Shown piece after piece: positions 1-26,192 of a stretch of 32,000 nt of DNA. Under the pieces are notes generated by a model that saw nothing but the letters and a program-made list of their open reading frames with translations, ran no database searches and was not told where the DNA came from. A program made the translations under genes and the position numbers. This DNA comes from Candidatus Lokiarchaeum ossiferum (lineage in GTDB: Archaea > Asgardarchaeota > Lokiarchaeia > Sigyniarchaeales > Promethearchaeaceae): contig CP104013.1 of assembly GCA_025839675.1 (NCBI GenBank), positions 1,860,001-1,892,000 of the forward strand, in the 5' to 3' direction. Position 1 is the first letter of the stretch. Each line of letters opens with the position of its first letter.

Positions 1-3000
1 CTCACCCCATGGATATATTATCGGAGGATTAATTACTTCTATTTCAGTCTCCCAATATTCAATTATTTCTAAATCGAGATTAACTGTTTTTGTTGCAGTA
101 TTCTCTTTTTGGGCACTTAGAGTTAAGGTGTATTGTCCTGCCGGGAAATTAATAAGCGATTTATTACAAATATATTCTCCTGTACTTACCTCATAGACAT
201 CTAAATCCAATCCGATTGAATCTATCCTTCCGGATAACGTCGGATAAATTTCGAGGAAACTCAAAAATTGAACTCCCAAGCTTAACACTTCATTTTGTGC
301 AATTTTTATCGCATTCGAAGATATTTTAAAATCTTTACCAATTGAATAAACGAAATCCACTGATCTTCGAAGAACTAAAATATTCACAGAAGATTTTTCG
401 GAAAGTGAATAATTGGTTAATTCCATTGTGAATTCAAGCAAGAATGATCCCACTTTACTCGCAAGGAAAGTAAAATTATATTCACCATTTTCTGTAAAGT
501 CCAGATACCCTCTTTCAATAGAATTACTTCCGGGTTGAGAAACGTTGTACAAATTATACTCTATTAATGCCCCATCGATCCTTTTTCCTAAAATACTGCT
601 GGAAGATTCAGTGACATTCATTATGACGTTTATGTCGATTGAATCATCGAAATAAAGTTCTACTTCTTGGATCTCCGATTCACTATCAAATGGTGTAAGA
701 GAAGTATCCACAGGACGAATTGAAACCCATGGTTTTACAGTTGCTATAGAATATTGAGATTGTTCAATGGTTGGAATGATATAGAATAATTTCTCACTTG
801 CTACTTCTAAAACACTCGTATTTACCTCAATTCGATAATAACCATCGCCATAAGCACCATCATCTTTTAGATTTTCCCAAGTCCAATTTGCAGGATCACT
901 CGAAGAAAGCAAAATTTCTTCAACTTCAGTAGCACCTTCCATATAAGTAATCGAGAGTTGAGAAATTTCGGCATCACTCAGCGGATCGCTTAATCGAGGT
1001 TCGGATGTGCATTCATAATAAACATAGAATGTGACATTATTACTCCAAGAAGTTGATAATGGAGGATTAACGATTTCTAATTTGGAACTCCAGGTAGATA
1101 AGATTTCCACATTTATTTTGATAGTTGAATTTTCGTGGTTCATTTTTTCAGTGATAATGTAAAATTCGTGGAAACCTAAACTAAAACCAGAAGCACTTAC
1201 CGTACAGTTATATTGCCATTCTCCAAGCCCATAATTATAATTCATTATAGGATTGGCAAGAGTATCTAAATATACCGTAATACTTGCATCATTGACTTGG
1301 CTGGAATTACTCACATAGGTATAATTCAAAAATGTCGTGATATTTTCCGTGATTGATGTTCGTAGTGAAGTATCACTTATTTTGAAGTCGGATTCAATAA
1401 AAGTATCTGTTTGAGTATCTACAGGTAAAATAGTAATCACTACAGTCAAGGATTGCGCCGTAAGGTTTCTTGCAGCAGCACTCAAACTGATTGTGTAAAC
1501 CCCAACATTCAAACTATATTTTGAAACAGTGAGTAAATACACACTACTGCTCGCATCTAAACTCGCTAATGTTCCCGAAAATACAGTATCTTGAATGGTA
1601 TATTCAATGGTTGAAATCGAATCAGAAATGTTCATAATTTCAGGAAGAACTGTTGTATAGTTGAAAGAAATAACAATATCTTGATCCCATTGTTTAGTAA
1701 GTTCAGATGTAGATGTTATTCGTTGGAATTTTGTGGTGTGATTCAATATTCGAATTTCACAAACAAAAGTAGAACTTTGCAAATCTTCAGTACCAGCATT
1801 TTGACCTCCTACTACAAATGTAAACACATAAGTTCCTGCCCCATACTGTGTTGAGAATAAACTAATATTGTATAAACCGGTCCCCACAGATAAATCATTG
1901 AAATCATCTGAGGATGAATCATTTATACTGTTTCCATTTTTAGTTAATTCCCAACTTCCTGTAGTTAGCCCTACTCCATGAGTTACAGCAGCATCATTGA
2001 AGAGATCATAAAAATATAGTTCTATTTCTACTGAATCCCCATAATACATTGTGAGATAAAATTGTGAACTTGAATCACTTGTTTGATTGTTATCATGAAC
2101 ACTGTCCCATCCTGTAATTCCAGATTTTCCAAAATATAAATCAGTATTTGATAAACTGGTTTTATGTTCTGTTAAGGAAACATACACAATTTTCGATTGG
2201 ATTGTGTCTGCAGTAATAGTCCAATTATAGATCCCATAATTTCCATTTGTTGGAGAAATAGATATTGGCCTGTATTTATTCTGATAGTTAACAGTAATAT
2301 TATAAATAGAACGAGGACAACGTATTGTGAGATTACCTTGGGCATTACTTTGGAAATAAGTAATATTTAACCCAGTATAGAAATTTTTAAGAGTAATATT
2401 TGCGTTGTATAAACCTCTGTAAGCAATTGGAATATTATCATCAGCATCCCAAACCATTAAGTTTATTGTTGTCAAATTACAATCCAATAAAGATCCGGTT
2501 AAAACATAATCTTGATCTTGTGGATCGATTGCTATGTAATTTGGGTTTTCATAAATAATATAATCTGTGGTTAACCCAGAAGATTCTTCTCCAACAGTAT
2601 ATTTTACCCATACATCCCAAGATGCACTATAAATGTTTTGTAATCGAATTTTACCACTCCCATCCGAAACAATCTCGAATGTTTTGGAAGAATCTGCGTT
2701 GTCAGTAAAATTAACAACCGCATTGGGAATAATATTACCATCATGATCATAGACTGTTAATTCATATGTTGTTAAGTTTGCATTAATCTCTTCAAAGATA
2801 TAATCATTTGCTGTAGCAATTTCTAAGGAAAAGTTTAAGATGATTTCCCTTCCACTACCAGCAGCAACATCCACAACTAAATTCCAAGAATCACTCTCAG
2901 TACTATTATATATTCCTAGAAATTCAATAACTCCATCATCCAAATTCCCACTAAAACTCGTACCATCCTTATTAGTCAATTGGATCGAAGGTGATACTGA

Positions 3001-5844
3001 GTTTGATAATGGTGTTCCCGAATAATCATTGATAGTAAATTGCACATTTGTTAAATTAGCTATAATTGTATCGAAGATCAATTCTTCATTATCTTCAAAT
3101 GTTGAATTTCTGACTTGATATACATTATCATAAATCACGTGATCATCAGATGAGGTAACAGTCAATTGCCAATTGCTGGAAGTTTCATATACTTCCGTTA
3201 AAGTGACGTTTCCATTGACATCCGTTATACCAGATTTGATAATAGATGGATCATTTAGATTAGTTAGCGCTACCGTGGCACCAGAGATATCATTCAATGA
3301 AGGATCTAAGAAATTCAACCTAGTATTTGTCAAATTTCTGTTTAATGTCAATTCAGAAGAATTTAATGATAAATAAAATATTTCCCAATTAAAAACAGGA
3401 CTATATAGAGGTTCAATTGTTTTAGTATAATTGGCAACTATGAAACCACTTTCAGTTTGTAACTTAATCCTATAATCACCAAAGGGGATTTGAGTAAACA
3501 AAGCTTCCTCACTTGTAACCAAAGATGAAAAACTGACAGATGGATTATCAATATATTCCATTAAAACTTGCCCATTTACTAAATTTGGTATATAGAATTT
3601 AACATTTGTTAAATTACATATAATTTCATAGTTTGATGTTGATATGGCACTATCTAACACATAGGTACTATTAAAAATTGTATAATAAGTTGGGGCACCA
3701 TATTTTACTTTTACAATCAACCTCCAAGTTTCATTATACATTCCTGTAACAGATAATGACCCATCTGTCAAATCCGCTAAATCATACGATGAAAATAGAG
3801 ATTGATCACTTTCTTTATAGATTGAAAAATTCAGATTTGCTATTGGATTTCCATCTTCAGTTTGATCAATTAATCTCCCCAGATCATCTTTAATAGTAAA
3901 AACCGCATCAATAAACACTTCCGTCTGCACTGTAAAATCTATATTGCTGAAGTATACTTTGCTTTGACTATCAGTAAAATAACTTAATTCCACTCCAGAA
4001 TCAATTTCAATTCCAACAGTCCAACGTAATCTGCCCGAATTATCTAAAGCATCACGTTGAGTAGAATTTAAGATCCACCCGAACTGATCACAACCTGTCC
4101 CATATCCAAGAGAAGCACCCCGAACATCAGCAAAGGAATTTAGAGAATAATTAGTAAATGTGTAGTCTGCATTAAATGTACCAGAAGAAGATTCATCAAT
4201 TTCCAAGATAGCAAATACACGAGCTTTTTCTAAAGTTTCTGATAAATTTGCAGCATTAGCACTTCTAATTGCAGTTGGAATTTGATATCCGAACGTCAGT
4301 TCAGCGGGAGATTCGGGTATTATTGATCGTTTAGATCCCCAAGCAACAGGATCTGAAGTAATTAAAATTTGCTCCGGAGAAGATGGTAAATCATAAGGAG
4401 TTGATTCAGTGACCTCTACATAAGGTTCCACAATTTCTACAGAAACACCATTATCTTGTTCAAAATATTCATATATTGCATTATCAATGTGATTAGGATC
4501 ATTACGAATACCTCGAAAATACCCATATTGATGATGAGTTAAATCAACAGTCATCTGTAAGAAATACCAACCTGTACTATCTAATTCTGATCCAAAGTCA
4601 CCACTTTGAGTAATGGAAACATCATCGTCAAATGCACCAGTTCCAGAATCTTCTGAGAAGGATTTAATTGATTGTGTATTGGGTACCATAACAGGTGATC
4701 CCCCATTATATTCCCAAATATCATAAGTCAATTCGCCCGTAATATCAGTTTGATAAAATGTTTCATTTGCAATCTCATATCCTTGATAATTTGAATTAAT
4801 TACGACTTTATCCAAAGGATGATATTCAAGTTCACCGATTTCATATAGATTAACATCAGCCCCATAATAGGCATTTGTTGAATCGGTAGTTTGATCATAG
4901 TAAAAATACATTCGAATTTCAGTTGAATAATCAAATGAAGTATCCCAGTACGCGTTCACATATTGAGTATTGTCAATCGTACCATCTTGACCTGTACTTT
5001 GAATATAAAGGTGCCACCAAGTAGTCCTTGCTGCTTCAATGCTGATTGTGTCTTGATCATAATCTACACTATAGCTCCTTTGAGGTGCGATTTTAGAATC
5101 AGCATAGTCACCATATGTACCGCTAGGTGTTGTAGTTGAAGATTGTAAAACAGCAGGTCCCAAAATAGTTCCAGATTCGTAAGTATTTGCAGGGTACGTG
5201 TAACTGTAGGATCGAGGATTATCTTGAAAAGTCCAATCTTCAGTATACATCATCACATTTGATAAGCTGTTTCCATATACACTCCGACCTGTACTATTAA
5301 ATTCTTCACCACTTGCTAAATAACCCACACTTGAAGGAGTTGACTCATCAATGTGCAATAACCCAGTAGATTCATTCATATCCGTATTATTCAGAGAAAA
5401 GAGTTTTGTTCTTCGAGCACTATCAAGTTGGATGGCCCCAACACCCAAATCCTCGAAATCAGTACTTCCAGCAACATAAGAATTAGAATCATATACATAA
5501 TCATTAAAAGGATTCCAATTTTGAGTATTAGTCTTTGTTTGGGTTGTTAGACCAGAAGTGATGGATCCATCCCCCCAATATGTATCAACGTAACTATTAG
5601 CACCATCATAAGTCCATACTGAAGGATTAAATTTTTCACTATATACTCCCTCGGGTATGAAGTTCTTTTCTTCATATAAACCATCAAGAGCACTATTTAT
5701 ATCTTGATTCGGTCCAAGTTCATCTCCCGTCGTTAAGTTTTCTTCAAAGTTATAAAAAGGATTATCAAACCCGACAGAAAAGATCTGGAGACAAAAGATA
5801 AAAACTAACACGATAGAATTTAGGTTATTTTTCTTTGTTTTCAT
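1..5844 (-). CDS. Giant secreted/surface protein, paralog 1. Only the N-terminal 1948 codons lie in the window; the ORF runs off the left edge.
   Basis: ATG at 5844-5842 follows a GAGGT Shine-Dalgarno-like motif (TTTGAGGTAATTAAATG). The N-terminus MKTKKNNLNSIVLVFIFCLQIFSVGF has a basic n-region and a hydrophobic core, like a signal peptide. I checked in-frame triplets in more than 15 sequence lines spread over the region and found no stop. The frame reaches base 1 (...LDLEIIEYWETEIEVINPPIIYPWGE). It is absent from the supplied ORF track, presumably because it has no stop in the window. Its C-terminal half is collinear with the 2017-aa protein (LEIVNPPLSTSW vs LEIITPPTVYPW; WTWENLKDDGAYGDGYYRIEVNTSV vs WDWENLKNNPNYGSGYYLIWFNTSV). 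Confidence 0.85.
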   Translation of the reverse strand, partial: MKTKKNNLNSIVLVFIFCLQIFSVGFDNPFYNFEENLTTGDELGPNQDINSALDGLYEEKNFIPEGVYSEKFNPSVWTYDGANSYVDTYWGDGSITSGLTTQTKTNTQNWNPFNDYVYDSNSYVAGSTDFEDLGVGAIQLDSARRTKLFSLNNTDMNESTGLLHIDESTPSSVGYLASGEEFNSTGRSVYGNSLSNVMMYTEDWTFQDNPRSYSYTYPANTYESGTILGPAVLQSSTTTPSGTYGDYADSKIAPQRSYSVDYDQDTISIEAARTTWWHLYIQSTGQDGTIDNTQYVNAYWDTSFDYSTEIRMYFYYDQTTDSTNAYYGADVNLYEIGELEYHPLDKVVINSNYQGYEIANETFYQTDITGELTYDIWEYNGGSPVMVPNTQSIKSFSEDSGTGAFDDDVSITQSGDFGSELDSTGWYFLQMTVDLTHHQYGYFRGIRNDPNHIDNAIYEYFEQDNGVSVEIVEPYVEVTESTPYDLPSSPEQILITSDPVAWGSKRSIIPESPAELTFGYQIPTAIRSANAANLSETLEKARVFAILEIDESSSGTFNADYTFTNYSLNSFADVRGASLGYGTGCDQFGWILNSTQRDALDNSGRLRWTVGIEIDSGVELSYFTDSQSKVYFSNIDFTVQTEVFIDAVFTIKDDLGRLIDQTEDGNPIANLNFSIYKESDQSLFSSYDLADLTDGSLSVTGMYNETWRLIVKVKYGAPTYYTIFNSTYVLDSAISTSNYEIICNLTNVKFYIPNLVNGQVLMEYIDNPSVSFSSLVTSEEALFTQIPFGDYRIKLQTESGFIVANYTKTIEPLYSPVFNWEIFYLSLNSSELTLNRNLTNTRLNFLDPSLNDISGATVALTNLNDPSIIKSGITDVNGNVTLTEVYETSSNWQLTVTSSDDHVIYDNVYQVRNSTFEDNEELIFDTIIANLTNVQFTINDYSGTPLSNSVSPSIQLTNKDGTSFSGNLDDGVIEFLGIYNSTESDSWNLVVDVAAGSGREIILNFSLEIATANDYIFEEINANLTTYELTVYDHDGNIIPNAVVNFTDNADSSKTFEIVSDGSGKIRLQNIYSASWDVWVKYTVGEESSGLTTDYIIYENPNYIAIDPQDQDYVLTGSLLDCNLTTINLMVWDADDNIPIAYRGLYNANITLKNFYTGLNITYFQSNAQGNLTIRCPRSIYNITVNYQNKYRPISISPTNGNYGIYNWTITADTIQSKIVYVSLTEHKTSLSNTDLYFGKSGITGWDSVHDNNQTSDSSSQFYLTMYYGDSVEIELYFYDLFNDAAVTHGVGLTTGSWELTKNGNSINDSSSDDFNDLSVGTGLYNISLFSTQYGAGTYVFTFVVGGQNAGTEDLQSSTFVCEIRILNHTTKFQRITSTSELTKQWDQDIVISFNYTTVLPEIMNISDSISTIEYTIQDTVFSGTLASLDASSSVYLLTVSKYSLNVGVYTISLSAAARNLTAQSLTVVITILPVDTQTDTFIESDFKISDTSLRTSITENITTFLNYTYVSNSSQVNDASITVYLDTLANPIMNYNYGLGEWQYNCTVSASGFSLGFHEFYIITEKMNHENSTIKINVEILSTWSSKLEIVNPPLSTSWSNNVTFYVYYECTSEPRLSDPLSDAEISQLSITYMEGATEVEEILLSSSDPANWTWENLKDDGAYGDGYYRIEVNTSVLEVASEKLFYIIPTIEQSQYSIATVKPWVSIRPVDTSLTPFDSESEIQEVELYFDDSIDINVIMNVTESSSSILGKRIDGALIEYNLYNVSQPGSNSIERGYLDFTENGEYNFTFLASKVGSFLLEFTMELTNYSLSEKSSVNILVLRRSVDFVYSIGKDFKISSNAIKIAQNEVLSLGVQFLSFLEIYPTLSGRIDSIGLDLDVYEVSTGEYICNKSLINFPAGQYTLTLSAQKENTATKTVNLDLEIIEYWETEIEVINPPIIYPWGE

Positions 5845-6106
5845 TTAATTACCTCAAATTTTTTGGTATTTAGTTATATTACTTACTCTAAAGGTCAAAT
5901 AAGTTTTATGGATAAATTTTCACAATTTACAAGCAAAATTTATTTAGCTAAAAGACTAAAACAAAACACTTTTTTTAAATTTAAGGAATTAAAAATAAAA
6001 CAATCAAGAAAAAATGAAAATTGAAAGCAGAAAGTCCAAATAAGAATGTCAAATTAAAAAATGAAACCTTACTTGGACCATATTTACAATAAATAAAGAA
6101 ATATTT

Positions 6107-6120
6107 AAAAAATCAAAAAA
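6107..6120 (-). terminator. Bipartite oligo-T tract (T6-GA-T6 on the minus strand) just downstream of partner gene copy 1
   Basis: The plus strand reads aaaaaatcaaaaaa at 6107-6120, 15-28 nt beyond the stop codon at 6135-6137. Oligo-T tracts act as archaeal terminators. An analogous T6-AA-T8 tract follows copy 2 although the flanks are otherwise unrelated. Confidence 0.5.
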
Positions 6121-6134
6121 GACTAAGTGAAGAA

Positions 6135-7268
6135 TCAATCAGCTGCGACTTCTTCCTTCTTTTTCGCCACCGCTTTCTTCAATTTCGCTTGAGCATAATA
6201 TTCGTCTTTCATCATATCCAAGGCTTTTAACAGCGCATTCGGATTTTGAGAGCGGGTACGATACTGTTGACGAATGTTGTCAATATTATAGCGCGGATAA
6301 AAGCGTTCAATGAAGAAATCCGAGGTCAAACAGAAATATTCATTGTTCTTATCGTCTTGGAAGACCGCAATCATCTTGGTTTCCCACATGGCTTTCAGAA
6401 CCCGATCCACATCATCCACCCCTTTCTTCCGAAGTTTTTCCAAGTCATTGCGGGTCACCATCGCTTCCCGCATCAATTTGATCACTTCGTAGCAAGCTGG
6501 ATCCAACAGAACTTTATCAATGATCGCCAAATTATCTGCTTCGCTGGGGACATACAGTTCAAAGAAATTCCGCACTTCCTTGATGTAAGAATCCTTCAAG
6601 GATGCAGGCAAGTGATGATCCACCGGATCTTTAACCAGCTCCACCGGAGGGGTGCGTAAGACCATGATATCTTCAGTTAAAAAGACCAAATCAGAAGATA
6701 ACCCCTTCACGGAAGCGATTTTCACGAGCCCAAGTTTCACCATCCCCGCCAAGAGGTTTTCCACATCCACAAAACCCTCGCGGTATTGATCCTTCATCCA
6801 AATCGAGATTTCAGATTTCGAAATGGCAGTTTCTTCCCGTAACCGATTCAGCAACATCCGTTTTACATCACTATTTAATAACATCCCATAGCGTTGTTCT
6901 TCGGTTAACGTTGGATAGACCGACAGACGTTGGAACAAGGGAGGCAAAATCGAATTTAAGGAATCCGACTCCAAATTCATCAGAATCTGGCGTGTAATTT
7001 CCGCTAAGCCCTCTTCATACACATCCCCATCTTCTTCAGCGGTGAGTATCAAGATCACATACACTGCCGATTCGGGTCCAGTATAATAGGAAGCGAGGTT
7101 GACCGCCCCTGCCGTCAATGACACCATTCCCGCTTCACCGGTAAATTCATGCTGAGAATACAGCTGCATCAAGGTTTTCTCTTGAATTACCACTTCTTCA
7201 GGGTAGGCACCTAACACTTCGACCCCTACCCGTTCATCCCAATGCATAATGACTAATCCGGTTGGCAT
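6135..7268 (-). CDS. 377-aa soluble partner protein, copy 1. Predicted longin/roadblock-like N-domain, two winged-helix-like domains and a Lys-rich tail. Function unknown.
   Basis: Complete ORF in the track. The ATG lies 1 nt after the stop of the upstream giant gene, with GGAGGG 7 nt upstream. No hydrophobic stretch long enough for a TM helix or signal peptide. No P-loop or catalytic motif recognised. Residues 1-360 are identical to the ORF at 13648-14781. Confidence 0.93.
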   Translation of the reverse strand: MPTGLVIMHWDERVGVEVLGAYPEEVVIQEKTLMQLYSQHEFTGEAGMVSLTAGAVNLASYYTGPESAVYVILILTAEEDGDVYEEGLAEITRQILMNLESDSLNSILPPLFQRLSVYPTLTEEQRYGMLLNSDVKRMLLNRLREETAISKSEISIWMKDQYREGFVDVENLLAGMVKLGLVKIASVKGLSSDLVFLTEDIMVLRTPPVELVKDPVDHHLPASLKDSYIKEVRNFFELYVPSEADNLAIIDKVLLDPACYEVIKLMREAMVTRNDLEKLRKKGVDDVDRVLKAMWETKMIAVFQDDKNNEYFCLTSDFFIERFYPRYNIDNIRQQYRTRSQNPNALLKALDMMKDEYYAQAKLKKAVAKKKEEVAAD

Positions 7269-7281
7269 TTTAAAGCCCTCC
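7266..7281 (-). promoter_or_regulatory. Translational-coupling junction: Shine-Dalgarno motif embedded in the last codons of the giant gene, then stop, 1 nt, start
   Basis: The minus strand reads GTA GGA GGG CTT TAA A ATG. GGAGGG (7281-7276) encodes the terminal ...VGGL and lies 7 nt upstream of the partner ATG (7268-7266). Confidence 0.7.
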
Positions 7282-10200
7282 TACTTTTTCATCACCTGAA
7301 GTGACATTTGCATCCTTATTAGATTTAACTTCATCGAGATTTAAAACTGCTGCTAAATCTAAATCGATTAAAGACCATCGATTTTTTAACCTTTCTAATA
7401 TTTCGTTCTTAGCAGACACTGTAATTAACTCATCTCCAATGGAACGCTTCTTTTCTATGTCCTTCTTAGTGGCGTCAATTTGCTTGATTATTAATGGAAT
7501 ATTGGCATACTTGATATAACTGTATGTTGCAAGTATTACTGCCATAGCTCCAATTGTAGCTCCAATTATCATCCAGGATCGATAAGTGACTCCTATTAGT
7601 GGATCTATAGGTAATCCAACTTGAAAAGCAATAGGAATAGAAGTTGTTGTATAATTTTCCCTTGTAATAATTATATTAAATTGATAGGGTTGATTTCTTG
7701 CTTCTAATAAAGCTAATTCATCTAAACTTAAGGTAATGGAATACACTCCAGCTGTGGCAGAATCTTCAATCAAATTGTACGTTTTTCCATTCAATTCAAA
7801 AGAGACGGATACATCAGACAAACTGATTCCACTAATTTTATCAGCAATATTAATACTAAAACTAATTTCCCTATTTTTCGGTGTAAATATAGTATTATTA
7901 TCGATATTTAATCCAGTTTGCAAGGAGAATTCTTTTCGTAAACAATTGAAAAATGCAGAAATTGTTGTAGATGTATAATTTTCAAGAAAACTAGTGACAT
8001 AAATTTTGTATTCACCAATTTTAATTGCATTTAATGAGAATTGATACAATCCATTACTTAGATCATCGAGAATTCCACTTTGAAGTATTTGAGACTCATC
8101 TTCTCTACTCACAATTTGATAATTCAATTGTGCACCTTCTATGTTTTTCCCATAAATCGCACTACTTTCATCAGTTACATTTAATTTAACGGAAAACTTT
8201 GTAGATTGATCTAAGATCAATTCAAAAGACTCTACATTTTGGATTTCAGTAGTTGAAGGAGTCAGACCAGTTCGAAGGGCTGTGATCCATATATATGGGC
8301 GAATCGATGCATTTTGGTATAATGAATAGTCTAGAGTTGGAATAGCATAAAATACCCCCGACGATTCGACAGATACAACACTAGTATTAAACCAAATTAA
8401 ATAGTACCCACTTCCATAATTCGGATTATTTTTCAAATTTTCCCAATCCCATAATAACCCTCGCTGATTTTCACCTAAGCTTAATAATTGTAATTCAATC
8501 CCTTCCACTTTATGAGTAATATTTAATGAAAGGACATCAGCAGCATCTAATGCCACATCAGAACGTGTTGGATCGACACTTTCATATCTTACAACGAAGG
8601 ATGAGATATTATTCCAAGGGTATACTGTTGGAGGAGTAATGATCTCCAGATTTGTATCCCAATAATCTAAAATCTCAAGATCGAGATAAATTGATTTGCT
8701 TTCATAGTAGAGCTTGGAAGCTTGAATCTTAACATCGTATTTCCCAATGTCATATAAATCAACATCAATGGAACAATTATAAACACCATTTCCATTGTTG
8801 AATAATGGAATTTCTGCATTATCTTCAACACCTTCAATGAATGCAGATACTGACGCACTCAAACCGAGATAGTTTTCAGATAAATCTGTATAATTGATTT
8901 GGAAGGTAATAATTTCTCCTTTAGCACCTTTCATATAAGTAGATGTGTAAGCAAATAAGTTATCGATAGACACATCTAATACTGTCGGATTTGCTATAAT
9001 TTGAAGGGCGTATGTTTGATCAACTTCCTTATAGTTGGTTTGATTTCCAAAAATTCTTAGAGTATAAATTCCAACAGGTAAATTCAAATTCACAATTGAA
9101 AGATTGTATGTACACCAGTTATCATCCATATCTTGATTCAAAACATATTGTTCAAGTACCCCCGAAACACTTCTACCTACTACTTCATAATTTAAAATGG
9201 CGTTAGAAATGTTTCTCATTTCAGGATAAACACTATAATAATCTACTTGAAGGGAAAGTGCACTATTCCATTGAATAACAAAATCTTCACCCTCATTTTT
9301 CATTTCGAGATAAGAATTGAAGTTCAATATTTCTATTTCAATCTCTAAAAACGAATCTTGAAGATCCGTTTTATTCAATAATAAACTAAAGATATAAGTG
9401 CCAGCAAATAATGATTCTGTGTAAAATGAAAGATTATAAAAACCAGAACCAACATCAAGATCTCCAATATTAGTTGAAGAATTCACAATTTGATTCGAAT
9501 CTTTCCGTAAAAGTGACCAAACACCTCCTGCACCTATAATAGGGACACCATCTTGAATATCTTCAAAATATAATTCTAATGAAAATATTTCTCCATAATA
9601 AACTTCTATAGAATAAGGTTCAATTGTGGTAATATTTTGTGAAGACCAATACTGAGAGCTAAACGAAGAGATAGTCAACTTAGTCTTATGTTCTTGAATA
9701 GAAACGTTGAATACTACAGAAGTTAAGCTAGTTAGTACAATAGTGTTTGTTAAGTTCTCATCTTGTCCGATATCATTTCCAATGATAAAACTACGCAATT
9801 TGTTTTTCACAGATACAGAAAAGTTCCATTGTGTTGCTGGTAATCTAAAAGTAACTATTCCATCACTGTTGGTTAAACTTGAGGTGATGTTAACATTCAC
9901 ACCAGAAGTTGCATTCATTAACGTGACATTTGCCGACCGTAAAATTTGATCATCATAATCTGAATAATAAATATCAGCAACAAAAATATTCAAGGTTGTT
10001 AGATTACAATTAAATATATCATAATAACGCCTACCATCAGAACCAATAGAAAACGTAATATCTTTGGTAAATATAGTATAGTTAACAGCATCATTCACAG
10101 AATATTTTACAGAAAATGACCATATATCATCATATAGTCCTTTAAAGGACACATTTCCAAATGAATTGCTTTGTTTTATAGTAATATCTTCGCCGCTGCT

Positions 10201-13619: not shown

Positions 13620-13635
13620 AAAAAAAATTAAAAAA
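13620..13635 (-). terminator. Bipartite oligo-T tract (T6-AA-T8 on the minus strand) downstream of partner gene copy 2
   Basis: The plus strand has A8 (13620-13627), tt, then A6 (13630-13635), 13-28 nt beyond the stop at 13648-13650. The arrangement matches that after copy 1. Confidence 0.5.
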
Positions 13636-13647
13636 TTACGCCACGAA

Positions 13648-14781
13648 TTATTCTACTGCGACTTCTTCCTTCTTTTTCGCCGCCGCTTTCTTCAATTTCA
13701 CTTGGGCATAATACTCGTCCTTCATCATATCCAAGGCTTTTAACAGCGCATTCGGATTTTGAGAGCGGGTACGATACTGTTGACGAATGTTGTCAATATT
13801 ATAACGCGGATAAAAACGTTCAATGAAGAAATCCGAGGTCAAACAGAAATATTCATTGTTCTTATCATCTTGGAAGACCGCAATCATCTTGGTTTCCCAC
13901 ATGGCTTTCAAAACCCGATCCACATCATCCACCCCTTTCTTCCGAAGTTTTTCCAAATCGTTGCGAGTCACCATGGCTTCCCGCATCAATTTAATCACTT
14001 CATAGCAGGCCGGATCCAAGAGTACTTTATCGATGATCGCCAAATTATCCGCTTCACTGGGGACATACAGTTCAAAGAAATTGCGTACTTCCTTGATGTA
14101 AGAATCCTTCAAAGATGCCGGTAGATGATGATCCACGGGATCTTTGACCAACTCCACCGGAGGAGTACGTAAAACCATGATATCCTCGGTTAAAAAGACC
14201 AAATCAGAAGATAACCCCTTCACGGAAGCGATTTTCACAAGCCCAAGTTTCACCATCCCCGCCAAGAGGTTTTCCACATCCACAAAACCTTCGCGGTATT
14301 GATCCTTCATCCAAATCGAGATTTCGGATTTCGAGATGGCGGTTTCTTCCCGTAACCGATTCAATAACATCCGTTTGACATCACTATTTAATAACATCCC
14401 ATAGCGTTGTTCTTCGGTTAACGTTGGATAGACTGATAGACGTTGGAACAAGGGAGGCAAAATCGAATTTAAGGAATCCGACTCCAAATTCATCAGAATC
14501 TGACGCGTAATTTCCGCCAATCCTTCTTCATACACATCCCCATCTTCTTCAGCGGTGAGAATCAAGATCACATACACTGCCGATTCGGGTCCGGTATAAT
14601 AGGAAGCGAGATTGACCGCCCCTGCCGTCAATGACACCATTCCAGCTTCACCGGTAAATTCATGTTGGGAATAGAGTTGCATCAAGGTTTTCTCTTGAAT
14701 GACCACTTCTTCAGGGTAGGCCCCTAACACTTCGACACCCACCCGTTCATCCCAATGCATAATGACTAATCCGGTGGGCAT
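13648..14781 (-). CDS. 377-aa soluble partner protein, copy 2
   Basis: Complete ORF. The junction with the upstream giant gene is the same (GGAGGGCTTTAAAATG). Amino acid differences from copy 1 occur only at residues 361, 367, 376 and 377. The stop codon differs (TAA here, TGA in copy 1). Confidence 0.93.
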   Translation of the reverse strand: MPTGLVIMHWDERVGVEVLGAYPEEVVIQEKTLMQLYSQHEFTGEAGMVSLTAGAVNLASYYTGPESAVYVILILTAEEDGDVYEEGLAEITRQILMNLESDSLNSILPPLFQRLSVYPTLTEEQRYGMLLNSDVKRMLLNRLREETAISKSEISIWMKDQYREGFVDVENLLAGMVKLGLVKIASVKGLSSDLVFLTEDIMVLRTPPVELVKDPVDHHLPASLKDSYIKEVRNFFELYVPSEADNLAIIDKVLLDPACYEVIKLMREAMVTRNDLEKLRKKGVDDVDRVLKAMWETKMIAVFQDDKNNEYFCLTSDFFIERFYPRYNIDNIRQQYRTRSQNPNALLKALDMMKDEYYAQVKLKKAAAKKKEEVAVE

Positions 14782-14794
14782 TTTAAAGCCCTCC
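14779..14794 (-). promoter_or_regulatory. Translational-coupling junction (SD in terminal codons, stop, 1 nt, start), second instance
   Basis: The plus strand has cat at 14779-14781, t, tta at 14783-14785 and ccctcc at 14789-14794. This is identical to the junction at 7266-7281. Confidence 0.7.
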
Positions 14795-17700
14795 TACTTC
14801 TTCATCACCAGTGGTAATGACAGAATCTGATGCAGTTTTAACATCATTCACCCCTAAAATCGAAGCAAGATCTAAATCTAAAATATCCCATCGATCTTTA
14901 AGACGTTCAACAATTTCTTCTTTGGAGCTTATTGAGATATTGGATTCACCGATCTCATTGTTCTTTTCAATATCTTTTTTCGTTGCATTAATCTTTTTGA
15001 TAATCATCGGAATATTTGCATATTGGACATACTTGGTCACTCCTGCAATAACTATTGCCAATAATCCCACTGCACCACCAATAAATACAAAGATCTTTGG
15101 AACACCTACATTTCCTACAGTAAATTCTGGAGGTGTTACTGAAATAGTAATTGTAAATGGCTCAATGGTATAATTTGCTTTATCTACTGAAACGATTGCA
15201 ATTTCGGTTTTTGCTGCAAGTAGTGCGTTATAATCGATGGAAGCAGTATCTATCACATATCGATATGTTCCAAGAGTATCAGTTTCTTCGACAGTCCAAT
15301 TACTACCTCGATAGTTCATTGAAACTGCTGCCCCCGTTAAAGGTGCTTGAGCGACGGGATCATATAAAGAAAATTCGATCACAATATTTTCACCTTCAGG
15401 CATTTCAACAATTTTATCCGCCAATTCAGCGCTCAATGTTAGAGATATTGGTTTTTCTTTAATATTCAAAGTAATTGACGCAGATCGTTCAATATAATTT
15501 GCTTGACCCAAATGAACAACAAAGAAATACATTCCAACTTGACGTGTAGCAGTATTGAAATCAAGGAGATATTTTCCATCCCCAATATCAACCAATTGGC
15601 CTTCATGAGTTATGCCTTGGAATTCCCATTCGTAGTAAGCAACAATTGCATTTGAAATGCCAACGTATTCACTATCCTCATAAGCGAAAATCATCTGATA
15701 TCCTGTGGTCACATTAATTGAAGTATCCAAATTTACAAATATGGAATTATTAATACTCGTTTGAATCCGATTGATTTTTACATTTATCACTAAGTTTTGA
15801 GTTTGATATTGATATTTTGTGGCTTCAAGATGCATAGTATAAGACCCAACACTTAAAAACTCAGTAGAATTTAGTTCGATCTCATATACTCCTCCACCAA
15901 TCGGAGTCAAATACCCTGTAAAACCAGAAACTTGTCCAACATAATAAGAAATTTCCCCATCCGTTATTGGTCCGTCATTATGAGTATCGAAGAAAGAGAC
16001 TGAAACGGTGAAATTTTCCTTCCATGTTTTATCAAATGACGTTGCTTCTGCACTTATAGATGTGGAAATACCATTAACATAGACGGTGATATATATTTGA
16101 TTCGTTTCATATTGCGACTTGGTGAATTTAACTCGGAATGTGTAAGTTCCTTGTTTACCAAAATCAATCGTATTGAGTTCAAGAGTATATAACCCCATTC
16201 CAGAGTCTGTGAAGATCCCATTACCATATCCAACAGCGGAATAGGTTACTGGACCTCCAATTATGGCGGCAGGAACACTGAGGTTTCTAATATCCATAAG
16301 GTTTACAGAAATATTAAAAATATCTCCCCAATATGCCACTTTTTCATCATCTATATGATTAGAGGACAAAGAAGTTGGAATTATCTTGATGGTCAAAACA
16401 ATTAAAGCTTGGCGACTTCCATATGTTTCTGCGAAGGCATCCAATTGAATGGTATAGGTACCGTTTTGACCAAACTGTGTTGTATTAAATTCCAAACGGA
16501 ATTCATTAGAACCTATATAATTCAAAAATCCTGTAATTTCAGATAAAGAAGAGACATTATACGAGATTTGACCACCAATTACTTCTTGAATATCTTGAGG
16601 ATCTACAACATCTTCATAATATGCACCAATTGTAAAATTCTCTCCCCAGAAATATTCAATTTCATCTGAATAGATTAAAGTTAGATTTGTTTTGATTAAA
16701 TTAATATCTACAATAACTGTTAACTGTCGAGATTGATATTCATCCTTACTCGCTACAACGATGAAAGTATAAGTTCCAGCTCCAGGAAAATCGTCATCAG
16801 TATTAAATGTGATATTGTAGGTACCACCACCAACATGGGAAATAGTCCCAGACGCAGAATACCCACTTGGTCCAGAAACCACATAAGAAATGGATCCATC
16901 GGTAATTGCTATAGGATTCTGTGAATCAGAGTTATCCAAGTAACTTACAGATATGTTAAAATTCTGATTCAATTGTTTTGAAATAGTTAATTCATCTGCT
17001 GTCAAAATTGTAGAAATAATTGAAACATCAACGGTTAACACTACCTGTTGAGTCAAATATTGATTTTTCGTTGCAGTCATGGTTATGGTATAAGTTCCAT
17101 TACCTCCAATATCGGTTTCAGAATTTAATGATAAATAATAAATTCCTGAGCCTTGAGGAGTAAGAAAACCAGAAGCAATTACACCTACAGGACTTATGGT
17201 AAAAGAGACGGTTCCATCATTTATCGGAATAGAAGACGCAAGTTGTTCATCCGTAAAAGTAACCGAAAGAACAAAATTTTCACCCCAGATCACTTCAATA
17301 ACGGAATCACCATTAAGAACTAAATCTGTAGGTACAATGGAAATAGTTAACACTATACTCATTTGAACGGTTTCATATTGGTTCTTTGTTGCAGTGATTG
17401 TAAAAGTATAAGTTCCTGCGTGATCAAAATTAATTGAATTGAAATCAAAGGAATACACACCTGGATTGCTCGATTGATGATTAAGGATACCTAAATCTGA
17501 ATATCCTGAACCCGAGACACTAAAATCGACATTGCTATCAAGAATAGGAGAATCATCTCTAGAATCAGTTAAAGTAACAGAAACAGTAAACCCTTCACCC
17601 CAAAATACATCAATTTCATCATTCCCGACCAAATTAACGGGAATCTTGGAAATATTCAAGAGAATGGATAACGATCTAGTTCCATAATTTACTTTACTCG

Positions 17701-21961: not shown

Positions 21962-22456
21962 ATGACATGTATGAGACAATTTAGGATCAATTTTGAATGT
22001 GAGATATGTGGTCTTGATACGAAGAGTTATTCCACTCAAATTCATAGATGTGTTGAATGTGGAAGGATCAAGTGCGCAAATTGTCGTCAGGGAGACTTTT
22101 GTATCAATTGTTATGAAAAATTAACTTTTAATCTCAAAAAAGAATTTGAACAAAAAAGAATTATTTGGCGATTATTATACACCCTATTCGCTTTTGGAAC
22201 AATAATATTCACAATTTTCTTATTCATGAACAAATTATTTTCCCATCCTAAGGCGAACTTGGGAATTGGAGGTTTATTTCTTGTTATGATAGGTTTCATC
22301 GGATTAAATAAATATTATGGATGGATCCATGGTCCCCTTTATCACGTAGCAGAGCATCTTGCGGCGCAAAATTTTTCATTTTTGCGAGAAAAAGAAAAAG
22401 CTCAATCAAATCAAGTCAAGGAAGAAATCATCGATATGCACAATGCCACAAATTGA
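21962..22456 (+). CDS. Membrane protein with an N-terminal four-CxxC zinc-binding module and two predicted TM helices
   Basis: The ORF encodes CEIC...CVEC..KCANC...FCINC (four CxxC pairs in about 40 aa). Hydrophobic stretches follow: IIWRLLYTLFAFGTIIFTIFLFM and LGIGGLFLVMIGFIGL. It is transcribed divergently from giant paralog 3. Confidence 0.7.
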   Translation: MTCMRQFRINFECEICGLDTKSYSTQIHRCVECGRIKCANCRQGDFCINCYEKLTFNLKKEFEQKRIIWRLLYTLFAFGTIIFTIFLFMNKLFSHPKANLGIGGLFLVMIGFIGLNKYYGWIHGPLYHVAEHLAAQNFSFLREKEKAQSNQVKEEIIDMHNATN

Positions 22457-22737
22457 ACTTAGAAAATAAGGAAACTAACTCATACGATTTTATTCAGTTA
22501 ATCAAAAATGGTCAATATTCCTCTTTCAAAAAAGAAGTTTTGAACACACTCACCCAATAAAACCATATTTTTTTTTCCCAGCTTTTGAAAAAATGGGATT
22601 TTAATAGCAAAATACAAGTTTAGATAACAAATTTTGGATATGAGAGCGTAAGAACTATAAGTAGAAGTATAGAGAAGTCCAATGATATTTTCAAGGATAA
22701 TTTTGCATATTGTTAACAGAATGTTGTCAAAAAACAC

Positions 22738-22819
22738 TTCGAATGCGAAGCTTTAAATTAACGTTTTGTTATTATTATTTTAGAGTTCGAAAACGAATAC
22801 TTCGAAATCGAATAATTCG
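22738..22819 (+). promoter_or_regulatory. Cluster of TTCGAA palindromes, including a tandem 15-nt direct repeat; candidate operator upstream of the PadR gene
   Basis: TTCGAA occurs at 22738-22743, 22786-22791 and 22801-22806. TTCGAAAACGAATAC (22786-22800) is followed directly by TTCGAAATCGAATAA (22801-22815), with 13/15 identical. A 5-bp hairpin CTTCG-aatg-CGAAG lies at 22737-22750. All sit within about 105 nt upstream of the probable ATG at 22842. Confidence 0.4.
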
Positions 22820-22841
22820 TACAAGAGGAAATCGGAAAAAA

Positions 22842-23450
22842 ATGTTCCCGCGTAAAGCTTTGGATCTAATCATACTATCAATTCTAAATGACAACACCGA
22901 AGGATTATCTGGTTATTCATTAGTGATGAAAATTAAAGAATTCTTTCCGATAACAAATGTATCCCCCGGCACAATCTACCCAAAACTCAAGAAACTTAGT
23001 GATGCAAATGATATCAAAGAACTGGAGAAAATATACAAAATCACAGATCAAGGAAAACAACGATTACAAGAGAGTACACCAAAGATTATCGACGATACCC
23101 TTAGCTTTATGCCCAAACTCTATAAAATATTGATTGGCACTTTACCTTTCAATAAAAGAATGAATTATATGTCAGACATTCCTTCTTGTTTCCATTTTGG
23201 AGCCGGTCACGAGTATGATGAAACAATATTTTCAAAAGAATCTGTTTGTTCATCCAATATCTCCGGTTCTTTAAAACACTTGACAGCTATGAAGGAAAAA
23301 CTCGAAGAATCCAAAATTCGAATTCAACAACAAGCAGACCAGCGATTGCAACATATCGAGAAACGTTTAAAAGCAATACAACAGAAAATCGATGAATGTA
23401 ATAAGGAAAAAGAACAATGGACCAAGATTCCAATCGTGGAAGATGATTGA
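22842..23450 (+). CDS. PadR-family transcriptional regulator with a C-terminal coiled-coil extension
   Basis: ALDLIILSILNDNTEGLSGYSLVMKIKEFF...VSPGTIYPKLKKLSDANDIKE...YKITDQGKQRL matches the PadR winged-helix pattern (hGYei...i...vs.GtlYp.L.rLe..G.i...Y.lT..G). The track ORF begins at a TTG at 22710. The ATG at 22842, preceded by GAGGAA, is more plausible because the upstream 44 residues look like non-coding translation. Confidence 0.8.
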   Translation: MFPRKALDLIILSILNDNTEGLSGYSLVMKIKEFFPITNVSPGTIYPKLKKLSDANDIKELEKIYKITDQGKQRLQESTPKIIDDTLSFMPKLYKILIGTLPFNKRMNYMSDIPSCFHFGAGHEYDETIFSKESVCSSNISGSLKHLTAMKEKLEESKIRIQQQADQRLQHIEKRLKAIQQKIDECNKEKEQWTKIPIVEDD

Positions 23451-23991: not shown

Positions 23992-24399
23992 ATGCACTAC
24001 ACACACGGATGCCACGGACCAAACCCCCAAATGTTTCAATTCTACATGAATAAATATGCGGGGTATATGCCCTACGATTTAGAAGAAGACGAAGGGACAT
24101 ACTATGTCACTATGCCCTTACCTGGATTTGATGTCAAAGATATCGAAGTTTCTGTCAAAGGAGATGCAATTCTGATAGAAGCAAAGAAACCACAAGAAAA
24201 CACCGAAAAAGACCCTCCAAAACGGAAAAAAATTATAAACATTGGAGATGCAATATGGAAACGGCCGATTAGCGTAAAAATTCCGGTTCATGATGAAATC
24301 GATCCGGCAAAAGTAAAAGCTAAATTAAAACGCGGAATTTTAGAAGTAAATTTTTCTAAAAAACCAGGGATGAAAGTTCCTATCGCTGAAGAGGAATAA
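23992..24399 (+). CDS. hsp20: Small heat-shock protein, Hsp20/alpha-crystallin family
   Basis: YYVTMPLPGFDVKDIEVSVKGDAILIEAKK...ISVKIPVHDEIDPAKVKAKLKRGILEVNFSKK matches the alpha-crystallin domain pattern. AGGAGA lies about 10 nt upstream of the ATG. Confidence 0.85.
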   Translation: MHYTHGCHGPNPQMFQFYMNKYAGYMPYDLEEDEGTYYVTMPLPGFDVKDIEVSVKGDAILIEAKKPQENTEKDPPKRKKIINIGDAIWKRPISVKIPVHDEIDPAKVKAKLKRGILEVNFSKKPGMKVPIAEEE

Positions 24400-24724: not shown

Positions 24725-26014
24725 TCAATTAACAATTATGCTGTTTTTTCCCACTTTTTCAGCCATAAATGGTTTCAAGAAGAAGATAGATACCCAGTAT
24801 AATGGGACTAAGAATATTTCAACGAAAATCGAGATAATGAATGGAGCCCTATGATCAACACGATCCCAGACTAAACCTCCAATATTAGGCCCAAAAAATC
24901 CACCCAAAAGTTTCATCCATTCAGCCATTCCGAAGATTTTCCCTCGATGTAATTGAGAAGTCCGGCTAAGGACATTTTCCATTAAAAGTAGATTAGCTCG
25001 TGCGAAAGTGAAATCAAAGGTGAGCAAAAGACTGAAAACAACGGGAGAAGAAGTCTGAATGAGAAACCAAGTCATTGCCCCACCGATACAACTTAAGAAT
25101 AAAATACCCACACGTGGATTGATGCGATCACAAATTTTCCCCATGTAGGGCGCCATCAATAAGGAGGTAATTTGGGCGGGAAAATATATGAGCATGACGA
25201 GAGTAGGATTTTGGATGATATTTTCAATCAGATAGACTTGCAAAAAGGGTTCAGCCAAAGTATCGTTCATCCGGCTTGCCATCAGAGCAAGAGTTAACAA
25301 AAAAAATGCCCCTAAAAATTTCTTGGACATTTTGTTTGATTCCATTTGAGTGGGTAGACCTTCAGAGGAATTTTTGATTACAAGTTCAGATTGCTCGTTA
25401 CGATCACTATTATAAGAGAAGATTTTTTCTTTTTTAAACTCCGCAAACGAGTAATGCTCATCCACATTTCGGTAAAAATACAGCCCTGCAAAGATATTAA
25501 TAACTGCAAAAATTAGAAAGGGGGAATAGACGATTAATAACTTATCCGGAATAAAATGGTGAGCTAAAGTGAAAACAGAAAAGCTGAAAGCTGAACCAGC
25601 CAAACTCCCCCATCCAATCATGCTACTCCTTTTTCCGTAGGCTTCTGATCGAAAGTATTTATTCGATTTTTCCGCAACGAGTGAATTGAAGGGGGGCCAA
25701 AAAAATCCCACTAAAACACCTTGGGTAAAAATTCCCGCTCCAAAGAGAGGTATGGAGTGCAACACAATGGATAAATAATACATAATATAAGAAATACAAC
25801 GACCTAAAGCCCCCACCATGACAAGTTTCTTTTTAGAGACCCGATCTGTCAGATAACCGATTAAGGGAGTGCTAAGAAGTCTTCCAAAAGCTTGAAGAGA
25901 GACGATTAAGCCCATCTCAGATCCACTAGCTCCAAATAATTGAATCGGTACATAAGAAACAATAAAGCCAAAAAAGAGAAATCCAAGACTATTCCAAAAC
26001 ACAATTTGAATCAT
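24725..26014 (-). CDS. MFS-type transporter (429 aa), paralog A
   Basis: Multiple hydrophobic helices. The motif-A-like GYLTDRVSKKK follows TM2. It is collinear with the ORF at 28677-30026 (FWNSLGFLFFGF/FWNSMGFFFFNF; FWPPFNSLVAEKSNK/FWPPFNALVSEKSNK; APFIISIFVE/SPFIISIFVE). Confidence 0.85.
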   Translation of the reverse strand: MIQIVFWNSLGFLFFGFIVSYVPIQLFGASGSEMGLIVSLQAFGRLLSTPLIGYLTDRVSKKKLVMVGALGRCISYIMYYLSIVLHSIPLFGAGIFTQGVLVGFFWPPFNSLVAEKSNKYFRSEAYGKRSSMIGWGSLAGSAFSFSVFTLAHHFIPDKLLIVYSPFLIFAVINIFAGLYFYRNVDEHYSFAEFKKEKIFSYNSDRNEQSELVIKNSSEGLPTQMESNKMSKKFLGAFFLLTLALMASRMNDTLAEPFLQVYLIENIIQNPTLVMLIYFPAQITSLLMAPYMGKICDRINPRVGILFLSCIGGAMTWFLIQTSSPVVFSLLLTFDFTFARANLLLMENVLSRTSQLHRGKIFGMAEWMKLLGGFFGPNIGGLVWDRVDHRAPFIISIFVEIFLVPLYWVSIFFLKPFMAEKVGKNSIIVN

Positions 26015-26192
26015 CGGTTTAAAATCAGGGGTAACGATAGGATCATTAATCGATTGTGCTCGCTTTTTTATTTGAAATGGTATGATTTATCCCCAGATCA
26101 AATGAATGGAGGATGAAATAAGTAAGTTATCAATTTTCACAAACGACAAATAGGATGATTACTTTACCTTAACCAGAAAGTGATTGTCTGTT

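Follow-up and report, generated by a model that had tools for sequence, protein, structure and literature searches.

The stretch of DNA analysed here, referred to as the window, comprises 32,000 nucleotides of Candidatus Lokiarchaeum ossiferum (positions 1,860,001 to 1,892,000 of the forward strand of contig CP104013.1, GenBank assembly GCA_025839675.1). It contains three tandem cassettes with genes for giant surface proteins, here referred to as giants 1 to 3; two of the cassettes are complete, and in these the giant is followed directly by a gene for a 377-amino-acid protein, here referred to as the partner. Partner copy 1 is 100% identical to NEF87_001533 of Ca. L. ossiferum, which is annotated as a "hypothetical protein." An earlier note, made from the DNA sequence alone, had read the partner as a longin/roadblock-like domain plus two winged helices and had offered two roles for it, a scaffold on receptor tails or a membrane-tethered DNA-binding regulator. 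We describe here that the partner gene is coupled to the gene for a giant with a conserved cytoplasmic tail and is in some proteins fused to it, and we argue for the first of these two roles.

The giant-partner gene pair

Giant 1 consists, in this order, of a signal peptide, a ConA-like/Laminin_G_3 domain with immunoglobulin-like (Ig-like) domains, one C-terminal transmembrane (TM) helix, and an 84-amino-acid cytoplasmic tail, and a single nucleotide separates its stop codon from the ATG of partner copy 1. In giant 2, many Ig-like repeats are followed by a TM helix and the conserved tail (14786-15034), which ends in GDEEVGGL. The last codons of giant 1 read GTAGGAGGGCTTTAAAATG, and the identical sequence stands ahead of partner copy 2, with the GGAGGG Shine-Dalgarno-like site of the second cassette at 14789-14794 (see Table 1 for the remaining coordinates). 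The placement of the partner's GGAGGG site inside the last codons of the giant is a signature of translational coupling. At the DNA level, the two complete cassettes resemble each other only over 6107-7518 and 13622-15031, which correspond to the TM helix, the tail, and the partner. The open frame of giant 3 runs off the start of the window, and its tail and any third partner copy therefore lie outside.

The partner belongs to a large and conserved family, with 587 matches at an E value of ≤1e-3 among 8,000 candidates scored; grouping at 50% identity divides its members in the representative library into 458 clusters, and it occupies 278 places in GTDB genomes. Gene coupling was surveyed at 83 reference-genome loci, in which 98 partner genes were located, 94 of them non-redundant. 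A long open reading frame (ORF) stops at −3 to +1 nucleotides from the partner start in 87 of the 94 non-redundant relatives, with an overlap of 1 nucleotide in 45 cases; the remainder comprises two genes on contigs that are too short, one with a giant that is apparently frameshifted, and four paralogues without a giant. The frameshifted giant (locus L007, ~6000-10000) stops 85 nucleotides early and has an aberrant tail, ...NIGNCSIWI, probably through an assembly frameshift or as a pseudogene. The giant-less paralogues (L035:4377, L039:4352, L050:4282, and L072:3550) are 47-50% identical to the window protein and are located just upstream of another cassette. For four relatives, the loci were retrieved by exact protein look-up, and each of the four carried such a pair; the giants, of 1,355-3,420 amino acids, end on or next to the partner start and contain DUF2341, Laminin_G_3, CarboxypepD_reg, or Ig-like domains. 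For some relatives, the metagenome-assembled genome (MAG) of origin is labelled as Thorarchaeota, Hodarchaeota, Hermodarchaeota, or Odinarchaeota, and for L036 and L066 the label is even bacterial (Nanopelagicaceae or Hyphomicrobiales); the bacterial labels look like binning errors, judging from sequences that are typical of the Lokiarchaeial clade.

The giants are secreted, single-pass proteins of 490-2,571 amino acids among complete ORFs and of up to 3,420 amino acids as called, each with a signal peptide and one hydrophobic helix ~83 residues before the C terminus. Their ectodomains have neither length nor content in common. The tail is basic and rich in Lys and Arg beside the membrane, and across 85 pairs it follows the consensus Y-R-x-I-Q-x-A-R-I-P-x-F-V-K-K...W-E-x-L-G-L-S-L-x-x-I-L-G...G-G. 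The conserved GG near the C terminus of the giants is accounted for by the GGAGGG ribosome-binding site of the partner, and the protein-level conservation of E-G-G-x at the extreme C terminus is thus probably imposed by an mRNA signal and not by protein function. In a variant of the tail (L024, L025, L027, and L043), a long acidic repeat (PEPE.EYPE.E...) is located between the conserved motif and the terminal ...DENQEGGSEE.

Several other explanations of the pair were considered and set aside. The C-terminal GG of the tails is better explained by the embedded GGAGG ribosome-binding site than by ubiquitin-like processing, and an archaeosortase/PGF-CTERM-type sorting signal was dismissed in view of the 83 residues located after the TM helix. 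A polymorphic toxin/immunity pair comes to mind where a small gene follows that of a giant surface protein, but the pair does not resemble one, as the variable part of the giants is N-terminal, their C-terminal end consists of a TM helix and a conserved tail, and the downstream gene is extremely conserved (omega of 0.014).

In some proteins of the representative library, the family domain is located C-terminal to >1,000 residues. In these natural fusions, the ectodomain, TM helix, conserved tail, a linker of 25-35 amino acids, and the partner follow each other in one frame. A search with one fusion returned 21 partial proteins of the same architecture and one shorter, N-terminally extended form. 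Their identity with the query fusion is 48-67%, and the assemblies concerned are from JGI, ENA, and NCBI; as they are divergent and derive from several assembly sources, the fusions are not a sequencing artefact. An AlphaFold2 model of one of them, P0123, had a predicted local distance difference test score (pLDDT) of 85.1. The block with tail helices 148-161 and 175-188 has pLDDT values of 80-94, above those of the TM helix, and the linker has values of 49-62. This pattern fits a tail that would pack on something, although this refers to the confidence values and not to a contact read from the model.

The two partner copies in the window differ at 69 of 1,134 nucleotides, 61 of which are third codon positions. 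Only four amino acid differences result (residues 361, 367, 376, and 377), with residues 1-360 being identical; the synonymous (dS) and nonsynonymous (dN) divergences are 0.32 and 0.0045, respectively, giving a dN/dS ratio (omega) of 0.014. In contrast, the adjacent tails of the two giants have a dN of 0.36 and a saturated dS of ~1.9. One essentially identical partner thus serves two giants whose tails have diverged. The difference between a dS of 0.32 for the partner and one of ~1.9 for the tails suggests gene conversion or a later replacement of the partner copies alone. Judging from these substitutions, nearly the whole surface of the partner is under very strong constraint, which is what one would expect of a hub that binds several partners.

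Table 1. Features of the giant-partner cassettes in the window
Feature	Position	Strand	Evidence or remark
Giant surface protein 3, N-terminal 1,948 aa, signal peptide	1..5844	-	Open frame; Pfam CarboxypepD_reg, Big_1
Partner copy 1, 377 aa, ATG start	6135..7268	-	ORF; AlphaFold2; Foldseek
C-terminal helix of partner copy 1, residues 343-377, Lys/Ala/Glu-rich end	6138..6242	-	DSSP H343-376
Winged helix 2 of partner copy 1, residues ~243-323	6300..6542	-	DSSP; profile matches to ArsR-type winged helix-turn-helix
Winged helix 1 of partner copy 1, residues ~123-206	6651..6902	-	DSSP pattern H-E-H-H-E-E
Longin domain of partner copy 1, residues 1-100	6969..7268	-	DSSP of AlphaFold2 model; invariant columns; longin matches at probability 1.00
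Giant surface protein 1, 2,017 aa	7270..13323	-	ORF; Pfam Laminin_G_3 E=4e-12; TM and tail sequence
Conserved cytoplasmic tail of giant 1, last 84 aa (YSYIKYANIPLIIKQ...RWSLIDLDLAAVL...GGL)	7273..7524	-	Proposed partner docking site
GGAGGG Shine-Dalgarno-like site for partner copy 1	7276..7281	-	In last codons of giant 1, 7 nt before ATG
Partner copy 2, 377 aa	13648..14781	-	ORF; same residues 1-360 as copy 1
Giant surface protein 2, 2,289 aa	14783..21652	-	ORF; weak Pfam Ig-like and CarboxypepD_reg

Outside the cassettes, the window contains genes for two paralogous transporters of the major facilitator superfamily with similar N termini, one of 429 amino acids (24725-26014, minus strand) and one of 449 amino acids (28677-30026, plus strand). 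Between them lie a gene for a U32 peptidase (26184-27485) and two small ORFs without an assignment. The stretches at 21962-23450, 23992-24399, and 30359-31971 between them encode a Zn-ribbon protein (two TM helices, no Pfam match), a PadR-family regulator with a long coiled C terminus, Hsp20, an Lrp/AsnC regulator, and an Rce1-like CPBP intramembrane protease, none of which showed a link to the giant-partner pairs.

Domain architecture of the partner protein

Pfam and NCBIfam recognise no family in the partner, and neither database gave an enzymatic or nucleotide-binding domain, in line with the earlier note, which had seen no nucleotide-binding or catalytic motif. The Pfam Longin model PF13774 was not matched; at an E value of ≤10, Pfam gave just one spurious match, TAZ1_RBM. 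Neither the single protein nor a close alignment led to a named family in Pfam, NCBIfam, or PDB phmmer/hmmsearch searches, which yielded only noise, with TAZ1_RBM, MukE, and CHRAC-14 at E values of ~0.1-1.

An AlphaFold2 model was built from an alignment of 42 homologous sequences (mean pLDDT, 89.8; predicted TM-score [pTM], 0.78). In this model, DSSP assigns strands (E) and helices (H) to the N-terminal region as E2-11, E15-22, H30-43, E47-53, E56-62, E69-76, and H81-97, to winged helix 1 as H134-145, E148-150, H151-161, H169-178, E182-185, and E194-197, and to winged helix 2 as H257-266, H273-282, H287-296, E300-304, and E310-314; a long C-terminal helix, H343-376, finishes as a Lys/Ala/Glu tail. 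Every helix and strand in the residue-level segmentation of the earlier note has its counterpart among these elements, including the two winged helices that it had placed at residues ~133-200 and ~255-320 and the Lys/Ala/Glu tail at 361-377, which is the end of the C-terminal helix. The N-terminal domain had been called longin/roadblock-like, and here only the longin half of the name holds. The order β-β-α-β-β-β-α with no helix before β1 is that of a longin rather than a roadblock domain: the model begins with a strand at residue 2, Roadblock/LC7 (PF03259) was not matched in Pfam, and the roadblock structures 3kye and 3ms6 match the partner in Foldseek only via the core that they have in common with longins. 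The longin domain contains about 20 of the 54 invariant residues of the family, including W10, D11, R13, G15, P23, H40, E41, S60, Y61, and G64, and winged helix 2 carries the invariant motif E277-K278-L279-x-K281-K282-G283-V284.

Structure searches with the model against the PDB are in agreement with this assignment. Isolated longins were matched at Foldseek probabilities of 0.96-1.00 and target-normalised TM-scores (TMt) of 0.36-0.54, among them those of Ykt6, VAMP7, and Sec22b (probability 1.00, TMt 0.37-0.54), the Lokiarchaeota Roadblock-Longin protein 8yqg_A (probability 1.00, TMt 0.46), and AP sigma subunits. For the C-terminal half, the tandem winged helices of ESCRT-II Vps22-type proteins were matched at probabilities of 0.51-0.82 (2zme_A, 0.82; 3cuq_A, 0.51), and the winged-helix regulators CodY and Phr were among the lower matches. 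A broad profile of 56 divergent family members matched, over winged helix 2, PH1932 (ArsR-type; E=3e-4), HlyU (E=0.014), and AdcR/ZitR, and over winged helix 1, weakly, the Mnd1 winged helix (E=0.02). In Pfam, HTH_5/HTH_20 were matched by only 3-4 of the 56 members (E ~3e-4) and not by the window protein itself, and TFIIE_alpha was matched in a few divergent members. Together, the model and these matches show the partner as a predicted longin-type domain with two winged helices after it and a long helix at the C terminus.

Relationship to NPRL2 and to small GTPases

NPRL2 and NPRL3 (Npr2 and Npr3 in yeast) are subunits of GATOR1/SEACIT, a complex that acts as GTPase-activating protein (GAP) for RagA/Gtr1. 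It is with such chains that the partner was aligned over its full length. Four PDB matches fell below an E value of 1e-3 (8adl_S, 9o5d_D, 8fw5_C, and 9v0j_A), all of them full-length, and were followed by 7t3b_B, 9h4q_T, and 7t3a_C. A sequence search identified 8adl_S as yeast Npr2 and placed human NPRL2 within 9o5d, 9v0j, 7t3a/b, and 8fw5. The Npr2/GATOR1-chain matches had E values of 5e-4 to 1e-3 and probabilities of 0.85-0.96, with alignments of 358-444 columns for 8adl_S, 9o5d_D, 9v0j_A, 7t3b_B, 8fw5_C, and 7t3a_C, and the model of a 47%-identical homologue also matched 9v0j_A (E 2.7e-3) and 9o5d_D (E 3.5e-3). Below the GATOR1-type chains came further multi-longin GTPase regulators, namely BLOC-3, DENND1, C9orf72-SMCR8, and Fuzzy-Inturned. 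As global TM-scores against GATOR1-type chains were only 0.2-0.25, the likeness is one of domain order and local shape and not of domain placing.

Both proteins have an N-terminal longin domain that is followed by tandem winged-helix-like domains, their lengths are close (377 amino acids for the partner and 380 for human NPRL2), and G15-x7-P23-E24 of the partner parallels G20-x7-P28-E29 of NPRL2 at β2. However, the partner is coupled or fused to the tail of a giant surface protein, which NPRL2 is not, and neither the partner nor members of its family matched PF06218 (NPR2) in Pfam. The partner thus has an NPRL2-like architecture, whereas membership in the NPRL2 family is not supported.

Within the longin domain, W10-D11-x-R13-x-G15 in the β1-β2 loop is invariant. 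Its spacing, W-D-x3-G, is that of C9orf72. In a 2025 survey, W33-D34...G38-P39 of C9orf72 was described as essential and a GP motif just before β2 as specific to GAP-type longins (PMC12290439). At the GP position in the partner family, G15 is invariant and the next residue is V, A, or T, not P.

Two other groups of eukaryotic proteins invite comparison. The longin adaptors VAMP7, Ykt6, Sec22, and AP sigma share the longin fold with the partner and, as we propose for the partner, recognise a helix or linear motif on the cytoplasmic side of a membrane protein; however, they do not have two winged helices, they serve vesicle-coat or SNARE machinery, and their genes are not located beside those of their cargo. 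The ESCRT-II subunits Vps22/EAP30, Vps25, and Vps36, which had been named in the earlier note, likewise use tandem winged helices as protein-protein scaffolds. That comparison is borne out by the tandem winged-helix matches described above, but ESCRT-II is not the nearest eukaryotic look-alike of the partner, which is NPRL2/NPRL3: the ESCRT-II match is weaker, its subunits have no longin domain, and Asgard ESCRT genes lie in a neighbourhood of their own.

"NPRL2-like longin domain" families of Asgard archaea have already been catalogued as asCOGs (Liu et al. 2021), and the same work mentions fusions of NPRL2-like longins to two-component signalling domains, which are unlike the pairing with giant proteins described here. 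L. ossiferum was noted, on the basis of asCOGs, to be enriched in NPRL2-like longin families, and an orthogroup common to L. ossiferum and P. syntrophicum, ORTHOMCL28, has a description that fits the partner family (Rodrigues-Oliveira et al. 2022 for the former). ORTHOMCL28, listed in a table that gives no locus tags, is probably the partner family, and the domain-level reading of the family is therefore probably already in the literature. In full-text searches of the literature, a pairing or fusion of the partner with giant surface proteins was not described, an absence that is in itself no proof. The coupling and fusion context is the new part of this work.

Genes for small GTPases are found near the pair in some lineages. 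In ~22 loci, a 311-amino-acid GTPase of the Gtr1/RagA type (Pfam E=3e-25) is encoded 6-9 kb upstream of the pair, with housekeeping genes in between. These loci (L003:2326-3261, L006:1491-2426, and ~20 more), in which the GTPase consists of a G domain with a C-terminal extension and lies beside genes for ThiI, ThiS, PfkB, and ribosomal protein S25, may represent plain synteny. In seven loci, a convergent gene for a 346-amino-acid Arf/Ras-type GTPase is located immediately downstream of one paralogue pair (L070, L071, L074, L075, L076, L078, and L081; for example, L078:4587-5516, minus strand), ~60-125 nucleotides after the partner. It stands between two giant-partner cassettes, and the neighbouring pair has an ARIPKHVKK tail. 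By eye, the N-terminal ~115 residues of this GTPase, to which no domain is assigned, alternate in a longin-like manner; no homology between them and the longin domain of the partner was detectable with hhalign. Lastly, Arf/Ras-type or Roadblock-Ras GTPases are encoded within two genes downstream of three of the four fusion genes. These neighbours are a Roadblock/LC7-Ras protein of 327 amino acids (L084:3824-4807), two tandem same-strand Arf/Ras proteins of ~600 amino acids (L085:3376-7323), and a double Arf+Ras GTPase of 624 amino acids (L087:4964-6838), whereas in L086 three JAB-domain proteins are encoded downstream instead. The proximity of GTPase genes in three sub-lineages is suggestive.

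A proposed adaptor role and its alternatives

We consider it reasonably likely that the partner is a cytoplasmic adaptor that binds the conserved tail of the giants and that possibly serves as a platform for small GTPases. According to this model, the giant and the partner would form a two-gene module of Lokiarchaeia and other Asgard archaea, in which the giant is a type I membrane protein whose lectin/Ig-like ectodomain varies and whose basic cytoplasmic tail of ~83 amino acids is conserved. The partner would be made from the mRNA of the giant by translational coupling and would dock on the tail as an acidic scaffold in which a longin domain is joined to two winged helices, presumably without enzyme activity and probably without binding DNA. 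Its longin domain may then recruit or regulate a GTPase, possibly by longin-longin or roadblock pairing, and in this way adhesion or sensing could be tied to the cell interior. Should the adaptor model hold, a small GTPase of the Arf, Rag, or Ras type would be the likeliest downstream partner, with about equal room left for something else. The model builds on observations that can be stated plainly, namely, the fold, the gene coupling, the fusions, the conservation of the tail, and the purifying selection. Of the two roles proposed in the earlier note, it corresponds to the scaffold on receptor tails, which is favoured by the translational coupling, the natural fusions, and the GTPase genes that lie nearby in some lineages.

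A number of observations weigh against the adaptor model or its link to GTPases. Physical binding of the tail is inferred from genomic linkage, the fusions, and the pLDDT values. The correlation between tail and partner distances (mirror-tree, r=0.93; Mantel p=0.001) was rejected as evidence of co-evolution, as adjacent genes share their history and such a value is expected of any two adjacent, co-inherited genes. In 4 of the 94 non-redundant relatives, the partner paralogue has no giant directly upstream. The earlier note had proposed to check the genome for GTPase genes that co-vary with the partner gene. There are GTPase genes near the pair in the three sub-lineages, but none is present in the window, and the closest relatives (P. 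syntrophicum and Harpocratesius) have none up to a distance of 10 kb, with the exception of L008, at ~8 kb. Moreover, the GTPase neighbourhoods partly reflect conserved gene order shared by related MAGs, and Asgard genomes are rich in small GTPases. When family alignments A1 and A3 were compared by hhalign with 14 vertebrate NPRL2 sequences, the probability was below 1%; this is a weak test, since the NPRL2 profile is shallow (Neff 1.4, vertebrates only), the database search having given only vertebrate NPRL2 among the matches listed (120 proteins). Finally, Arg78 of NPRL2, the catalytic arginine finger located in the loop that leads into the last longin strand, is invariant in the vertebrate NPRL2 alignment, but the equivalent loop of the partner, as judged by secondary-structure order and not by superposition, is S60-Y61-Y62-T63-G64-P65-E66 and contains no conserved basic residue.

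This last point bears directly on the possibility that the partner is strictly a GAP or a guanine nucleotide exchange factor (GEF), with a catalytic longin like those of the GAPs NPRL2, FLCN, and SMCR8 or the GEFs DENN and Mon1-Ccz1, and with a Rag/Arf-like GTPase of Asgard archaea as its target at the receptor tail. The full-length fold matches to Npr2/NPRL2, the invariant W10-D11-x-R13-x-G15 with the W-D-x3-G spacing of C9orf72, the G-x7-P-E spacing parallel to that of NPRL2, and the GTPase genes in three sub-lineages would all suit a catalyst. However, we regard such an activity as unlikely, given the S-Y-Y-T-G-P-E loop without a conserved basic residue, a GP motif that reads G-V/A/T, and the lack of a sequence-level relation to PF06218; R13 could take the place of the finger as a matter of pure conjecture. 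Coupling and fusion also suit a stoichiometric subunit better than a catalyst. Another candidate role is that of a dedicated factor for the biogenesis, sorting, or quality control of the giants. Such a cytoplasmic chaperone or targeting adaptor would hold the tail while the giant is inserted into the membrane or afterwards, and would be comparable to longin-fold binders of cargo and tails, among them AP sigma, the VAMP7 longin, and the SRX domain of SR-alpha. The strict one-to-one pairing with translational coupling, the fold matches that include AP1/AP2 sigma in cargo-tail complexes and VAMP7 longin-peptide complexes, and an essentially identical partner that serves two giants with a tail dN of 0.36 point in this direction. 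On the other hand, a transient chaperone is not expected as a permanent fusion behind the tail, two winged helices and the near-total constraint on the surface suggest partners beyond the tail, and no secretion or insertion genes were linked to the pair in the loci examined, so that we think a biogenesis factor as improbable as a strict GAP or GEF.

Least probable of all, in our view, is a membrane-sequestered transcription factor, whose winged helices would bind DNA upon its release from the receptor tail on a signal and whose fused forms would need Notch-like proteolysis. It could draw on the profile likeness of winged helix 2 to ArsR/SmtB/MarR-type domains (PH1932, E=3e-4), on the few divergent members that match HTH_5, HTH_20, or TrmB, on one JGI record that calls a member an ArsR-family regulator, and on an asCOG annotation, likely covering the family, that includes "HTH domain." However, the partner has a net charge of −16 and an isoelectric point of 4.9, with a family mean charge of −10, and its recognition helices (H3) and wings are net negative when residues are counted rather than surfaces calculated (winged helix 1, H3 −1 and wing −1; winged helix 2, H3 −1 and wing −2, with −4 overall). 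In addition, D168, D286, and D288 are invariant or nearly so in the recognition helices. An acidic protein with net negative recognition helices and wings is unlikely to bind DNA, and the membrane-tethered regulator of the earlier note is disfavoured on these grounds. The natural fusions would furthermore tether the domain permanently to a membrane protein, and in eukaryotic NPRL2/3 and ESCRT-II, tandem winged helices serve protein contacts.

Asgard archaea contain hundreds of genes for longin and roadblock proteins and small GTPases. Their surface has large proteins instead of an S-layer, and this surface is central to ideas on how an archaeal host met its bacterial partner. The module described here genetically ties a eukaryote-like, NPRL2-like scaffold to the cytoplasmic tails of giant surface proteins. 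In light of this, it is tempting to speculate, though we hold it to be rather doubtful in its entirety, that the pair is an archaeal transmembrane receptor-adaptor system by which surface contact with partners, particles, or polymers would be passed to Arf/Rag-type GTPases via an NPRL2-like longin scaffold, that it is a forerunner of membrane-anchored Rag/GATOR regulation or of longin adaptors for cargo tails, and that the giants are the "complex surface proteins" seen in cryo-tomography of Lokiarchaeum. The pair is open to experiment in two cultured species, Ca. L. ossiferum (NEF87_001533 with the adjoining giant) and P. syntrophicum MK-D1 (at least two loci).

Even if no GTPase is recruited, the pair would still be a widespread two-gene surface module, found at 278 places in reference genomes. 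If the adaptor does recruit a GTPase, an Asgard GTPase circuit would for the first time have a defined input, and this would hint that NPRL2-type regulators began as adaptors of membrane receptors.

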